Part shown: positions 13,900 through 28,545 of the stretch, one piece after another
Layout of the letters: each line of letters opens with the position of its first letter
How positions within the stretch are numbered: position 1 is the first letter of the stretch
Origin: an uncultured Eubacteriales bacterium
GTDB taxonomy: Bacteria; Bacillota; Clostridia; Oscillospirales; CAG-272
Assembly (NCBI GenBank): GCA_900545935.1
Contig: URAP01000004.1
Span: 13,808 to 77,807, forward strand
Length of the DNA stretch: 64,000 nt
Reading direction: 5' to 3'
Position numbers and translations under genes: made by a program
Notes under the pieces: model-generated
What the model saw: only the letters and a program-made list of their open reading frames with translations
Database searches by the model: none
Told to the model about the DNA's origin: nothing

Positions 13900-13934
13900 T
13901 AAAAAGCAGGTCATTGGGGGCACTCACTTAACGA
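13900..13934. repeat. attL-like site (aaaaagcaggtcattgggggcactcacttaacgac)
   Basis: Matches the reverse complement of 28511-28545 at 26 of 35 positions by hand alignment. Seven of the nine mismatches fall in the central 8 nt. Confidence 0.55.
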
Positions 13935-13982
13935 CAGTTCAAATTAACTGGTTTTAGTGGCGTCTTCAAGCGGTGCCAACAG

Positions 13983-14024
13983 AAAGACCACATCTTTGGA
14001 GTAAAATCCTTGGATGTGGTCTTT
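13983..14024 (-). terminator. terminator of the six-gene defence operon (possibly bidirectional)
   Basis: A 12-bp stem (aaagaccacatc / gatgtggtcttt) lying 24 nt past the stop of the 811-aa gene, with T-rich tracts on both sides. Confidence 0.55.
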
Positions 14025-14047
14025 TGCACTAATAAGGTTTCAAATGA

Positions 14048-16483
14048 TCAAATATGAAGTTTTTCAAATAATTCATCAAACTCATTAAATGCCGTCATAA
14101 AAGCATCCATAATCTTGTCACCAATTTGCCATTCATCAGGATATGTCATATCCTCAGGATCATAGTGGTCAGCATCCGTTCTTCCTCCATTTAATTGATC
14201 CATATATACTCCAAACTGATCTTTCGACATAGATACATTCTGGATAGCAATCCCCAGTGTATTCCAATTGTTTCTTATTACTTTTTTAAGACTGGAGAAA
14301 TACATAATGAATTTCTTGTGATCAAAAAACTCCGTAAATTGGCAAGAGTTAATGTCAGGGATAGGCGTACATCTTGGATTAATTAATATTTGCGACCTGG
14401 AAAAACAGTTTTTCATAAATGCTATCCCTGCCACATCTCCACCGTTGTATGTAAAATACTGAATTATATACTTTTTTAGTTTTCGCTCACATAACTGTAC
14501 TTTGTCTTGTATATATTGTCTGCGTTCATCATTTGACATATCACTTGGTGATTTGGTTTCAGTTCTGCAAATATAGTTTTTTAATCCATAGATAGTGAAA
14601 TCTATAAAACAAGTTAAAGCGTCATATTCAATTAATCCGTATTTAATCAAATGATCAATAATACTAACATCATCGCTTTCTACCTTTTTATACTTTCCTG
14701 GAGTCAAAGCAAATTTTTTGAGCATTTCATGCTCTTCTTTATATATGCAAAGATGCTGAAGAATTGTTTTAAAAACTTGGCTTCCCTTTACTGAATTATT
14801 GAATTCAGATACCAACGCAGAAAAAGTTGGTTTCGATATTTCGTATACCTTGTCAGGGGAACGGTATTGTTTAATGTTGTCAAACATGAAAGCGCTAAAT
14901 TGTCGTATGGCATATGGCTGTCCGCCAAAAGTCCTATTTATATCAACATAGATTTCATTAAAGGCAACATTACTATAGCCGCCCAGTGTGTTTAACATAT
15001 ATTTTGTTTGCTCATCTGTAAAGATCGGTAAATATGTTTTTGAAAAATCAGCGCAATTATGAATTCGCTCATACATCGGATTATCGCAGGATGCACCTTT
15101 GTATTCAATGATACTTCGCTCGTTTATGGTCGAATTAACTCCACACACGATTAATGAACAGCCCGAATCTCGTAAAGCGCCCCAAAATCCTTTATAAGAA
15201 TCGAGACTTTGCCAAACTAGAGATGTAGCTGTATTATATGTTATCAATTCTATTTCATCAATGGCAAGAACGAAGTTTGGATAATCCCTTGTATAGAGCT
15301 TTACGTCTTCAACGAAACATTGAGTTGGGCGTTTTTCGTAATCGTCTTCTGTGCTAGCCAGTCTTAGCCTCTCCTGAAAGTCATGCCGAGATTCGCCATC
15401 ACCTTGTATAAATCCTGTGGTATCGATTCGAATATGCCTTGCAATATCAAACAGAGCGGTTTTCCAGGAGTCAACCGGTTCCAATTCGGAACGCGCTTCT
15501 ACGACAGAATACTTAATCTCGTCGTTGTCAAGTCTACGTGTTACAGCCCTCAGAACAGATGATTTTCCGCTTCTACGCAGCCCAAATATTCCAGAGTGCT
15601 TTCCTTCACGACATCTTTGAACAATAGAATCAGCAATTTTTCCACGGTCACCGAACAATAGTTGTTCGTCTTCTATGGGGTTTTCTTCCCCTAGCATATT
15701 GTTCTCAAAGAGGTATTCGCCAAATCTATCTAGAATTAATCTTTCAAGCTGACTATTGCTTTCACAATTAAGTATTTCTTCAAATGTAAACGGAATAATT
15801 GCTGCATCTGTTCCGCCTTTCATTTTATCAATTTCAGATTTAAGGTGTATTGCATTGCTTATCAGCATATAAAAATTTACTAACGGACGCCGTTCAGCAA
15901 TTTCCTTCCTCTTTCGAATGAAACTAATCGCCTTAACTGTATTCTGCTGCCATGAACGATTATCAAAGTGTGAAAATAGCAAAAGGAACTCATACATACC
16001 GTGTATATATGGCTTTAGGAACTCAGTTGCTCCAATCAAGCAAAACGGAAAAGAAGCTCCGCCAAATCCCATATCATGATGACCAACATGAGAAACATAA
16101 AGAACACTCTTTAATTTTTGAAGCACTTCATACTCGCCAGAATTCGGTTTTAGATGTTCTTCACGCATACGAACACGATCCATATTCCGATAGTATCCAG
16201 GTGTATAAAACTCTCTTAATGGGTGTTGTTCAGATGCTTTATCTGTATCGCCAGTGTTGTCTTTTTCAATTAATCGTACGCCTAACGCAGATGGCCTACC
16301 TTGCGCATCTGTGAAGGTAGAAGAGTATTCGACAGTATCCCCCATAAAAAAATCTGACATTTCCAAACCATCAGACAATGATCTACTGTCAAAATAGATT
16401 GATTGTCCATTGTCAAGTTTTATAAACCCATATTCTAGCCCGTTAGTTTTATTCGTTTTTATACAGTCTACTTTGCCTTTCAT
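14048..16483 (-). CDS. 811-aa protein: N-terminal cold-shock/OB-like domain, about 200-aa unassigned domain, Arch_ATPase/ORC-like P-loop NTPase, long helical C-terminus
   Basis: The N-terminus KGKVDCIKTNKTNGLEYGFIKLDNGQSIYFDSRSL...GDTVEYS resembles a CSD. Walker A is in GIFGLRRSGKSSVLRAV and Walker B in FVLAIDEIELI. The start lies 9 nt after the Mrr stop and has a GAGG SD. Confidence 0.8.
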   Translation of the reverse strand: MKGKVDCIKTNKTNGLEYGFIKLDNGQSIYFDSRSLSDGLEMSDFFMGDTVEYSSTFTDAQGRPSALGVRLIEKDNTGDTDKASEQHPLREFYTPGYYRNMDRVRMREEHLKPNSGEYEVLQKLKSVLYVSHVGHHDMGFGGASFPFCLIGATEFLKPYIHGMYEFLLLFSHFDNRSWQQNTVKAISFIRKRKEIAERRPLVNFYMLISNAIHLKSEIDKMKGGTDAAIIPFTFEEILNCESNSQLERLILDRFGEYLFENNMLGEENPIEDEQLLFGDRGKIADSIVQRCREGKHSGIFGLRRSGKSSVLRAVTRRLDNDEIKYSVVEARSELEPVDSWKTALFDIARHIRIDTTGFIQGDGESRHDFQERLRLASTEDDYEKRPTQCFVEDVKLYTRDYPNFVLAIDEIELITYNTATSLVWQSLDSYKGFWGALRDSGCSLIVCGVNSTINERSIIEYKGASCDNPMYERIHNCADFSKTYLPIFTDEQTKYMLNTLGGYSNVAFNEIYVDINRTFGGQPYAIRQFSAFMFDNIKQYRSPDKVYEISKPTFSALVSEFNNSVKGSQVFKTILQHLCIYKEEHEMLKKFALTPGKYKKVESDDVSIIDHLIKYGLIEYDALTCFIDFTIYGLKNYICRTETKSPSDMSNDERRQYIQDKVQLCERKLKKYIIQYFTYNGGDVAGIAFMKNCFSRSQILINPRCTPIPDINSCQFTEFFDHKKFIMYFSSLKKVIRNNWNTLGIAIQNVSMSKDQFGVYMDQLNGGRTDADHYDPEDMTYPDEWQIGDKIMDAFMTAFNEFDELFEKLHI

Positions 16484-26511: not shown

Positions 26512-26709
26512 ATGAGCGCAGCGGTCGGCACATATGAAGGCAGACCCTGCACCGTTTCGGAAATGGCCGTGGGCAACACTCTGTTCACGGTCATCTCCGT
26601 ACAAAGCGATTCTGCAAGGGAAACTGCTTTTGAAAAGGTCAAAAAACTGATCCTGGGCAACTGCACATCAGCTCCGGAAAAGTTATCTCAAAATTCAAAT
26701 AAACATTGA
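26512..26709 (+). CDS. TnpW-like small transposon-encoded protein
   Basis: Start at MSAAVGTYEGRPCTVSEMAVGNTLFTVISVQSDSARETAFEKVKKLIL. This is the pattern of TnpW-family proteins found beside large serine recombinases in clostridial elements. Confidence 0.65.
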   Translation: MSAAVGTYEGRPCTVSEMAVGNTLFTVISVQSDSARETAFEKVKKLILGNCTSAPEKLSQNSNKH

Positions 26710-26785
26710 AGAAATAACTTGCTTTTTCTGCGACAGTACGGGAATATGTAGTACCGCTTGAAGACGGTCGGAAAGGAGAATTATT

Positions 26786-28465
26786 ATGAAAATGAACATC
26801 AGCGTTTCCAAAACAAACAGACCGTCTTTCTCTGTCGCAGGAGACAAGGTCACCGCTCTTTACTGCAGACTGTCCCGTGACGATGATCTACAGGGCGAAA
26901 GCAACAGCATCGTGAACCAGAAAGCTATCCTGAAAAAGTATGCCGACGATCACGGATTCACCAGCACGGCTTATTTCGTAGACGATGGTTACAGCGGAAC
27001 AAATTTTGATCGTCCTGACTGGCAACGCCTGCTCGGCATGATCGACGAAGGGCGTATCGGCACCATCATCGTGAAGGATATGAGCCGGTTGGGAAGGGAC
27101 TATCTCCAAGTAGGTATGTACACGGAGATGGTGTTTCCAAACAACGATATCCGCTTCATCGCCATCAACAACGGTGTAGACAGTGCAAATCAGGTGGACA
27201 ACGACATGACGCCGTTCATCAACATTTTCAACGAGTTCTATGCCAAAGACACCAGCAAGAAAGTCAAGGCTGTGTTCCGTGCTAAAGGAAATTCCGGTAA
27301 ACCACTGACTACCAATCCGCCTTACGGTTATCTGAAAGACCCCAATGACAAACACCATTGGATCATTGACCCGGAGGCAGCCCCGGTAGTACGGGAGATG
27401 TTCAAAATGTGCGTTGCCGGAAAAGGCCCTTCGCAAATCTCGAAAGAACTGATGCACCGTGGCATTCCGACGCCCTCCGAACATATGCATACGCTTGGGA
27501 TCAGGACGCCCGCAAAGCAGTCGGAACAGCCCGGCTTCTGGCAGCAACGCACCATAGCCGATCTGCTGATGAAGCCCGAATACTTGGGCCATACGGTCAA
27601 TTTCCGAACAAGAAGGAAGTCCTTCAAGTGCAAAAAGACCGTGTGGAACGATCCTTCCGAATGGTCGATCTTTGAGAATACCCACGAACCGATCATCGAC
27701 CAGGAGACATTCGATATCGTCCAGCGTATTCGGGAAGGGCGCAGGAGGCTTACTCCGATCGGTGAGATGCCGATACTCTCCGGAATACTGTTCTGTGCCG
27801 ACTGCGGAGCCAAACTGTACCAAGTCAGAGCGAGGGGCTGGAAACACGAGCAGGAGTACTTCATCTGCGCATCCTACCGAAAAGGGCAAGGGCTTTGTTC
27901 TCCCCACCAAATCCACAATATCCAGGTGGAAGAGATCCTGCTTCGGCAATTAAAGAGCATTACGGCTTATGCACGTTCCCATGAAACGGAATTTGTAGAA
28001 CTGGTCACGAGGCAGAACGAAAAGGAACTCAATCGTCTGATGCGCAACAGCAACAAAGAGCTTGTTCAGGCGAAAGAACGCATCAAGAAATTGGATAGTA
28101 TCATGCAGCGGCTCTACGAGGACAACATCGACGGTAAAATATCCGACGACCGTTTTTCCCGAATGTCCGCTACCTACGAAACCGAGCAGAAGCAATTGGA
28201 AACAAGAATCTCCGAATTGGAGGCGGCCATTGCGGAGGCTCGGGAGCAACGCCTAAATGTAGATTCCTTCTTGGAAATGGTGCGCCGGTACACGGACATT
28301 ACGGAACTTACCGCAGAGATCATCCGCTCTTTCGTGGAGAAGATCGAGGTGAAGAAACCGGAGAAAGTCCCCGGCACACGGACAAAAAAGCAGACCTTGG
28401 TCATCTGGTGGGGCTTTATCGGCGTGGTCGATATCCCGAAACAAGAGCAAAAAGAAACGGCATAG
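26786..28465 (+). CDS. large serine recombinase (TnpX/TndX-like)
   Basis: 559 aa. It has the catalytic-serine context [26 protein letters not shown], the resolvase core [13 protein letters not shown], a recombinase domain, a Zn-ribbon (CADCGAKLY...CASY...C) and a C-terminal coiled coil. Confidence 0.93.
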
Positions 28466-28510
28466 CCTACATGATCGTAAGTTATGCCGTATCCTTTTTG
28501 AGCACCTTTC

Positions 28511-28545
28511 GTCCTTAAGTGAATGCGGACTTGAACCTGCTTTTT
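28511..28545. repeat. attR-like site (gtccttaagtgaatgcggacttgaacctgcttttt)
   Basis: An inverted partner of 13900-13934 (26/35 identity), lying 45 nt downstream of the recombinase stop codon. Confidence 0.55.

Follow-up and report, generated by a model that had tools for sequence, protein, structure and literature searches.

Large serine recombinases with a DUF4368 domain were described as a multi-targeting clade that includes TndX-like enzymes, and one recombinase with a TT core and A/T-enriched ends was illustrated in the same study (Durrant et al. 2022, PMC10083194). MTI_2871 was characterised likewise, with a TT core and A/T-rich ends (PMC13137831); 2-bp repeats were found to flank TnpX-type elements (PMC3158075), and the recombinase of Tn4451 was found to work without a directionality factor (PMC5704250). 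The element described here was found in a window of 64,000 nt (the whole stretch of DNA that was analysed, to which all coordinates refer) of contig URAP01000004.1 (GCA_900545935.1) from an uncultured Eubacteriales bacterium of CAG-272. Its recombinase belongs to the DUF4368/TnpX-like multi-targeting clade, and the system is a newly resolved member of this known class that involves no new kind of mechanism. It is highly probable that the 14,617-bp element was inserted by its own TnpX-like DUF4368 recombinase at the TT of a terminator-like hairpin, that it uses multiple sites, and that it carries defence cargo and is a probable satellite.

The integrated element was found to occupy positions 13916-28532 with a TT at either side, between an MscS-family gene (13002-13820) and the convergent tRNA-Leu(CAA) gene (28816-28902, - strand). 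The sequence-only reading had placed the boundaries of the insert at two 35-mers resembling recombinase attachment (att) sites, and both limits were found to fall inside these 35-mers. The left 35-mer (13901-13935) and the right 35-mer (28511-28545) were inverted copies with 26 of 35 matches when the left was aligned without gaps to the reverse complement of the right. The mismatches were located at positions 12-15, 17-19, 23 and 32, seven of the nine lying inside the central 8 nt, and two of the central mismatches were found to be an asymmetric core read on opposite strands (TT vs AA). The inverted similarity ended at the borders of the two 35-mers. These counts, claimed earlier, were reproduced by the computed alignment and beat all of the 60 mononucleotide shuffles of the two 300-nt zones, in which the best inverted 35-mer contained 18-22 matches and never 26. 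The right site was located exactly where it had been placed, but the left site starts at 13901 and not at 13900, because position 13900 is a T. The stop codon of the recombinase gene ends at 28465, followed by the right 35-mer after 45 nt, as had been read. The Rfam scan of the whole window found two tRNAs only and no RNA family at the att sites.

Element-free contigs were retrieved by exact look-up of the MscS protein (n = 10, from other samples, one of them an NCBI assembly). All ten contigs, from the same species, were found to lack the insert and to contain a Crp-family gene within ~900 nt of MscS; this gene lies beyond the element in the window, and in the empty contigs MscS runs straight into the tRNA/Crp region. 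The junction was found to read ...AAAAAGCAGGTCATTGAACCTGCTTTTTCGG... (also given as ...AAAAAGCAGGTCATTGAACCTGCTTTTTCGGTACTTGAGG...) in 10 of 10 contigs, with the empty attB junction GCAGGTCA-TT-GAACCTGC. The attB that had been reconstructed from the occupied site alone, a palindrome of the form A5-GCAGGT...ACCTGC-T5, is exactly what the empty contigs read, and the comparison with related genomes free of the insertion thereby gave the junction that had been predicted. The occupied site was found in three samples with 100% identical sequence. Since three samples were occupied and ten contigs were empty, the element is a presence/absence polymorphism within the species. Samples with the element include ERZ28621343 / SAMN03283275, SRR1761702, SRR24884071 and SRR31228127.

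The B arm of attL (13901-13913, + strand) was found to consist of host DNA, AAAAAGCAGGTCA, which forms the left half of the attB hairpin and was unchanged in the 10 empty-site contigs. It was followed by the left copy of the putative crossover TT (13914-13915, + strand), the sole sequence shared by element and target and the dyad centre of both attB and attP, and by the P' arm of attL (13916-13935, + strand), element DNA GGGGGCACTCACTTAACGAC, which was kept at the left end of every copy, with G or A at its third base, and was missing in the empty sites. The P arm of attR (28511-28530, + strand) contained element DNA, GTCCTTAAGTGAATGCGGAC, and was present beside the recombinase gene in all copies. 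It was followed by the right copy of the TT (28531-28532, + strand), directly after which the flanks diverge, with G, A, T or C as the next base depending on the site, and by the B' arm of attR (28533-28545, + strand), which is host DNA (GAACCTGCTTTTT), forms the other half of the attB hairpin on the right and was joined to the B arm in the 10 empty-site contigs. attB was found to be AAAAAGCAGGTCA-TT-GAACCTGCTTTTT, symmetric about the TT at 11 of 13 positions. attP, as reconstructed from the inner halves, was GTCCTTAAGTGAATGCGGAC-TT-GGGGGCACTCACTTAACGAC, symmetric about the TT at 15 of 20 positions, which agrees with the earlier description of attP as a second imperfect palindrome; the deduced circular attP junction reads GAATGCGGAC-TT-GGGGGCACTCAC. 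A DDE-type cut-and-paste transposon, with the 35-mers as terminal inverted repeats owned wholly by the element, would account for ends that are inverted copies at 26 of 35 positions, but this explanation was refuted by the empty sites and retains virtually no probability: the outer 13 nt of each 35-mer are host DNA that is contiguous in the 10 empty sites, the outer parts change at every other site with the inner arms alone conserved, no DDE transposase was present among the scanned open reading frames (ORFs), and no target duplication extended beyond the TT.

The same recombinase was found at many other host loci. The 100%-identical protein was present at two different sites (the window and the Logan contig of locus L012), and 99.6%-identical proteins were present at two more. 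Look-up of a helix-turn-helix (HTH) protein of the element retrieved ten more loci with the same element or its remnants in differing host contexts, and copies that were 94-99.6% identical in protein were found at at least eight other host loci with both ends recovered, where only the TT was shared by element and flank. Scans for the attR arm matched 10 species-representative genomes, 43 metagenome contigs (whose record names point mostly to human gut) and one IMG/VR contig; the genomes include uncultured Eubacteriales, Oscillospiraceae, Ruminococcaceae UBA6353, Anaerotruncus, Clostridiales UMGS975 and Suipraeoptans intestinalis (Lachnospiraceae). After near-duplicates were collapsed and the scans were pooled with the protein look-ups, ~30 non-redundant attR flanks and 10 attL flanks were obtained. 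The flanking genes differed from site to site (VanY/BioY, peptidase M28/C39, RNase T, lipase, SecA and others) and the stem sequences of the attBs were unrelated between sites. One recombinase cluster (90% identity) was thus present in far more than three unrelated loci, as counted from the ~30 flanks. The attB at MscS is not unique, and the recombinase uses many different terminator-like hairpins. That the element is a single-site one, with the MscS terminator as its dedicated attB and the other flanks as orthologous sites in other species, would agree with the single occupied site seen in this species; it is extremely improbable against the unrelated flanking genes and stems and the placement of a 100%-identical recombinase at two different sites.

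The comparison of these flanks narrowed the crossover dinucleotide. The triplet TTG was common to attL, attR and attB in the window. Among the loci from the HTH protein look-up, every attL was found to read host-TT-G[G/A]GGCACTCAC, and every attR was found to read GAATGCGGAC-TT-host; the base preceding the TT in attL and the base following the TT in attR differed from site to site. The right flank of L012, with its identical recombinase, was GCGGAC-TT-AGGCCTGCC and departed directly after the TT. Across the 10 attL flanks and ~30 attR flanks, TT was the only sequence common to element and target. The predicted crossover dinucleotide is therefore TT at 13914-13915 and 28531-28532, located 3-4 nt off the centre of the 35-mers. 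The GG that had been proposed as the central crossover dinucleotide was rejected in favour of TT, as the G that follows the TT in attL belongs to the element and the corresponding base in attR is site-dependent.

Two points weigh against this account of the junctions. At the loci found by scanning, the TT that follows the P arm had been written into the query; the 9-10 sites from protein look-ups support the TT independently. The circular attP junction (GTGAATGCGGACTTGGRGGCACTCAC and a longer version) gave no match in IMG/VR or in JGI metagenome contigs, and because no circular junction was found, present activity and the sequence of attP are deduced from attL and attR only. The sequence-only reading had proposed a search for both the empty-site and the circular junction; the empty-site half was borne out, but the half that concerned the circle returned no match in these contig collections. 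The left-end arm gave no match in IMG/VR, and the core region gave no match to plasmid records by megablast.

The half-site profile, read outward from the TT, was found to contain G at +3 (24/29 flanks), C at +8 (20/29 flanks) and T at +10 to +14 (20-24/29 flanks), and the left arms mirrored this profile with A-tracts, giving ~10 bits per half-site. When a weight matrix made without the window's own site was run over both strands of the 49.4 kb host part of the window, the true attB was ranked first of 6,727 TT positions, with a score of 13.6 vs 4.1 for the runner-up. The 80%-identical recombinase P0150 was taken as a test of TT and terminator use in relatives. Its 10 places of occurrence (10/10) were the same site downstream of SecA, and no junction was deducible because all of them represent one site; in the flank, a TT precedes a stretch rich in GC and then a T-run, an arrangement that is compatible with such use but uninformative.

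All eight reconstructed attBs (8/8, both ends recovered) were found to form hairpins that consist of an A-tract, a GC-stem, a TT-loop, a second GC-stem and a T-tract. Their folding energies ranged from -13.6 to -28.5 kcal/mol vs shuffled means of -4.5 to -8.2, the TT was present in or at the apical loop of all eight, and at least one host gene ended beside each of them. The attB hairpin of the window lies 80 nt past the MscS stop codon; the empty site folded at -13.6 kcal/mol (z -3.9) and its hairpin was flagged as terminator-like on the - strand. The attL and attR of the occupied window folded no better than shuffles, and no terminator-like site was present at the left junction. Inside the left end, a strong hairpin, AAAGACCACATC...GATGTGGTCTTTT (13982-14027), was found, with RNA folds of -26 kcal/mol (+ strand, z -6.4) and -22 kcal/mol (- strand, z -4.5). 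It is located 66 nt inside attL, in a 109-nt block (13917-14025) that was conserved whatever the cargo, and it may act as a bidirectional terminator that replaces the disrupted attB hairpin.

Several points weigh against terminators as the proper target. The assignment of attB as an intrinsic (Rho-independent) terminator is a prediction, the + strand reading of the empty-site hairpin was not flagged by the pattern scan, and tRNA-Leu was found to have its own terminator-like hairpin nearer to it (28651-28678). The enrichment for terminators could also be due in part to survivorship, with intergenic insertions being tolerated, and not to a preference of the enzyme. As tRNA-Leu has its own closer hairpin, attB is more likely the terminator of MscS than one shared with tRNA-Leu. 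The earlier view of attB as a bidirectional terminator-like palindrome between MscS and tRNA-Leu was upheld as to the hairpin, which is present in the empty sites, but shared use by the two genes is the less likely part in view of the tRNA's own hairpin. No description of terminator targeting by serine recombinases was found in a limited literature search. It is a speculative and rather doubtful extension that evolution has tuned the recombinase lineage to bidirectional intrinsic terminators in general, that hairpin or cruciform geometry could be recognised beyond the degenerate sequence, and that the 811-aa NTPase of the cargo is an undescribed single-gene anti-phage system. If this were true, terminators as a class would be a host-independent safe harbour, which could explain the spread of a satellite-like element and its swappable defence slot across several families of gut Clostridia.

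The large serine recombinase claimed from the sequence was confirmed by its domain architecture. The gene (26786-28465, + strand) encodes a TnpX-like protein of 559 aa that was found to contain Resolvase (PF00239, E 1e-23), Recombinase (PF07508, E 1e-22) and zinc-ribbon (Zn_ribbon_recom, PF13408, E 4e-12) domains, followed by the presence of a C-terminal DUF4368 domain (PF14287, E 1.9e-20, residues 482-549); the pattern Cys-x2-Cys ... Cys ... Cys was seen in the translation. Residues 20-135 were aligned to the catalytic domain of TnpX (PDB 2mhc) with E 5e-42. The motif YCRLS30RDDD was found opposite YERLS15RDDD of TnpX in that structure. Ser30 is predicted to be the nucleophile of the recombinase, opposite residue 15 of TnpX, which we take to be the nucleophile of that enzyme. 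Upstream of the recombinase, a small TnpW-like protein (26491-26709, + strand) matched PF14202 TnpW with E 2.5e-5 and 24.4 bits vs a cutoff of 25, and the counterpart ORF in relatives with an 80%-identical recombinase was annotated as TnpW; the protein is a possible accessory factor of recombination. At locus L052, a second DUF4368-type recombinase (2182-3813), 45% identical, was found immediately beside the recombinase of the element, which suggests that two different serine-recombinase elements were inserted in tandem or one within the other.

By analogy with the family, dimers of the recombinase would bind each imperfect palindrome and then synapse, both strands would be cut at the central TT to leave 2-nt overhangs, and one pair of subunits would rotate by 180 degrees before the strands are religated. 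The expected products would be attL as B-TT-P' and attR as P-TT-B', and the orientation of the insert would be fixed because TT is not palindromic. The enzyme would read a degenerate symmetric motif in which each arm, outward from the TT, has G at +3, C at +8 and T at +10 to +14, one arm being the mirror of the other; bidirectional terminator-like hairpins with a TT loop fit this motif, so that the element would land in intergenic 3' regions of many Clostridia. Transfer between cells would probably take place as a phage satellite, which is the least supported step of the scheme.

The left part of the element was found to contain a defence operon on the - strand. The gene next to attL (14048-16483) encodes an ORC/STAND-like P-loop NTPase of 811 aa that has a cold-shock-like domain at its N-terminus and weak AAA/STAND Pfam matches, and it occupies a variable defence slot. 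It was followed by a Mrr-type (Type IV-like) restriction endonuclease (16493-17377; PF04471, 3e-28, and Mrr_N; PADLOC mREase_IV / PDC-S02), a Type II restriction endonuclease of 500 aa (17389-18891; PADLOC REase_II, E 5e-116, with no Pfam match) and two C5-cytosine DNA methyltransferases (18888-19955 and 19952-21004; PF00145, ~1e-66 each; PADLOC MTase_II). The HTH controller-like protein (21001-21216; PF01381, 6e-14) was located at the head of this restriction-modification (R-M) operon; the identical protein was present in 707 collection blocks, and the fetched loci belonged to the element family or were its remnants. From the P' arm through Mrr, R-M, HTH, primase-helicase and capsid genes to the recombinase, the element was collinear with 96-99% identity in at least eight independent insertions. 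The R-M/Mrr operon is cargo of the same element as the core, as had been proposed earlier; it was found within the same att boundaries in these insertions and was missing from the empty sites.

Separate arrival of two adjacent islands, one AT-rich with the defence genes (14.0-21.2 kb) and one with the capsid, primase and recombinase genes (21.2-28.5 kb), was weighed against this single element. The two parts were found to differ in G+C content (GC; 42% in 14026-21216 vs 51% in 21217-28532), the gene next to attL was swapped among copies, and homologues of the 811-aa protein were also present on unrelated tyrosine-integrase/Mob elements. The empty sites, however, lack both parts at once with a single attB restored, no att-like site was present at the internal boundary, and the R-M/Mrr block and the core were collinear at 96-99% identity with the same attL and attR at no fewer than eight independent sites. 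Two separate arrivals are very unlikely in view of the empty sites together with the shared attL and attR; the difference in GC points to an older acquisition of the cargo by the element and not to a separate insertion here.

The slot itself (14026-16483), between the conserved left block 13917-14025 and the Mrr gene, was found to be a precise swap site. The window and six fetched loci contained the 811-aa gene there; its place was taken by the Kiwa genes KwaB/KwaA in L017, L023 and L025, and by the Shedu gene SduA in L020. The 811-aa protein is one of an unnamed family of ATP-binding proteins of ~800 aa, and its only PADLOC match was a weak one to PDC-S01. Its AlphaFold2 model (predicted local distance difference test, pLDDT, 85) contained a cold-shock-like N-terminus and a middle alpha/beta domain, followed by an ATPase that resembles those of ORC/Cdc6 and NLRs and by a C-terminus made of helices, and ORC2/Cdc6 and plant NLRs were the best Foldseek matches. 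The NTPase is a candidate defence gene because of its position in the slot. Homologues with 71-72% identity were found at the ends of unrelated elements with a tyrosine integrase and a Mob_Pre relaxase (L081, 10001-12442; L085, 9225-11666), where R-M genes (ICEA or AlwI with methyltransferases) lie immediately upstream of them, and the gene appears to move between mobile elements alongside R-M systems. Contigs of 14,628 and 14,642 bp with 811-aa homologues were considered as circular copies and rejected, being unrelated tyrosine-integrase/Mob_Pre elements.

The right part of the element was found to contain the core genes on the + strand. The primase-helicase (22884-24966; D5_N, DUF5906; phrog_1883) was split into ORFs of 94 aa (22884-23168) and 605 aa (23149-24966) that match consecutive parts of phrog_1883, the larger with E 6e-263. 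Sister copies contained primase-helicase ORFs of 170 aa and 602 aa, and the relative with an 80%-identical recombinase (L086, 1-931) contained a single 761-768-aa primase-helicase with an extra NrS1-1 pol-like domain; the split may represent a frameshift or a loss of domain in this lineage. The full-length HK97-fold major capsid protein of 315 aa (25560-26507; PF05065, 6e-62; phrog_10) shared 37-39% identity with proteins annotated as major head proteins in phages of Oscillospirales, Ruminococcus and Blautia. Within the phage collection, its nearest homologue (48% identity) was encoded by MT838964.1, an unannotated record of 4.7 kb from human faeces titled 'Bacteriophage sp.', which may represent part of a related small element from a virome. 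The core was also found to encode small HTH proteins. In the regulatory region, a segment of ~540 nt (21749-22291) was present in the window copy and missing from the L017-L026 copies, and it overlaps the start of a 163-aa ORF (22069-22560; phrog_11138).

The lifestyle of the element is somewhat better explained as that of a phage satellite, as judged from its gene content, than in any other way. On the broad list of features of phage-inducible chromosomal islands (PICIs), a serine integrase, HTH proteins, a primase-helicase and a capsid-family gene were present, and tail and lysis genes and the small terminase subunit (TerS) were absent. Pfam and PHROGs scans of the ORFs turned up neither terminase, portal or protease genes nor any for tails, lysis or a relaxase. 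The order of primase, small ORFs, capsid, TnpW and recombinase genes was kept in the relatives with an 80%-identical recombinase and at more than 10 insertion sites, and the keeping of this order with a full-length capsid ORF in these relatives argues that the capsid gene is functional. The weight against a satellite lies in the absence of a small terminase subunit and of any known hijacking gene, with no helper phage identified. The same integration chemistry could serve an element of another kind, either a Tn4451-like integrative or transposable element that is mobilised by conjugation or taken up by transformation, or the remnant of a prophage in decay, with the capsid gene as a relic. This is possible but the less probable course. 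The recombinase and the TnpW-like ORF are of the Tn4451 type, the scans detected neither a terminase or portal gene nor a known hijacking gene, the sole IMG/VR contig with the element's end sequence was an integrated copy, and many copies are decaying, all of which would suit it. Against it, no relaxase or Mob protein was present among the scanned ORFs, and the core order with the full-length capsid ORF, kept at 80% recombinase identity and at more than 10 sites, argues for selection on the capsid gene and not for a relic.

Decayed copies of the element were found at many loci (L020, L023, L025, L035, L043-L047 and others), where attR was present with the last 100-140 codons of the recombinase and in some cases also with the R-M/defence block. 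Locus L020 retained the R-M/Mrr/Shedu block with primase, capsid and most of the recombinase deleted. Such loci look like a mobile element that is turning into a fixed defence island.

Apart from the element, the host part of the window and of the related contigs was found to contain further variable or defence-like features. Upstream of alaS, at ~6220-9950 (L001, 3221-6950), a TerB_N-domain protein (~785 aa) was followed by a BrxC/BrxD-like AAA ATPase (457 aa); this pair was present in all strains, element-bearing or not, and may be a chromosomal defence-like module. Between alaS and MscS, extra genes were found in L002, L005 and L008 (an Fe-dependent repressor, an ABC transporter and an HTH protein) which the window strain does not contain, and this interval is a second strain-variable spot beside the attB locus. 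A perfect 12/12 match to a sigma-70-type promoter, with an extended -10 TG, was found at 28992-29020, just upstream of tRNA-Gly (29042-29115).

Base-pair-exact attL, attR and attB sequences, with a deduced attP and a predicted crossover dinucleotide, were obtained here for a natural large serine recombinase, and the ~30 natural targets suffice for a predictive target motif that is directly useful in integrase engineering. The element is polymorphic in one gut species and shared across families, and landing in terminator-like hairpins is how this defence-carrying element spares genes. In its cargo slot, an uncharacterised NTPase is swapped with Kiwa and Shedu, which nominates the NTPase as a defence candidate. 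The terminator-hairpin targets and the defence swap slot are the aspects most worth follow-up.

Among the described systems, the element resembles PICIs and capsid-forming PICIs (cfPICIs; de Sousa et al. 2023, PMC10085698) in being compact (14.6 kb) and integrated, with an integrase, a primase-replicase, HTH regulators, a capsid-family gene and a hotspot that contains defence cargo, and in the absence of genes for tails or lysis. Unlike in PICIs and cfPICIs, the integrase is a serine recombinase of a transposon-like clade, and the TerS, TerL (large terminase subunit), portal, protease and head-tail connector genes of cfPICIs were not found. The SatelliteFinder model of cfPICIs contains capsid, portal, TerL, TerS, head-tail adaptor/connector and protease, with at least 9 of 11 core components (PMC10085698); the element falls outside that list because only capsid, primase-helicase, integrase and HTH regulators were detected.

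With the DUF4368 clade (PMC10083194) and MTI_2871 (PMC13137831), the element shares insertion at many unrelated loci, a TT core and A/T-rich attB ends. The motif is treated in those papers as relaxed AT-rich specificity, and PMC13137831 makes no mention of terminators. Unlike in those descriptions, the A/T-tracts of the present sites flank GC stems, and the sites are hairpins located 3' of genes with ~10 bits per half-site. From TnpX (Tn4451/Tn4453) and TndX (Tn5397) of Clostridia, the same order of Resolvase, Recombinase, Zn-ribbon and DUF4368 domains is known, and the TnpW-like ORF, the 2-bp flanking repeat and the use of several target sites are likewise in common. The core dinucleotide of Tn4451 is reportedly GA, in contrast to the TT found here. 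Unlike Tn4451, the element was found by the Pfam and PHROGs scans to contain neither a TnpZ/Mob relaxase nor antibiotic-resistance cargo, and it contains primase-helicase, capsid and defence genes and is targeted to terminator-like hairpins. Class C bacterial group II introns insert at intrinsic-terminator hairpins by ribonucleoprotein retrohoming, whereas the present element would do so by double-strand exchange through a serine recombinase; for both, the terminator hairpin offers a safe intergenic harbour that is available in any genome.

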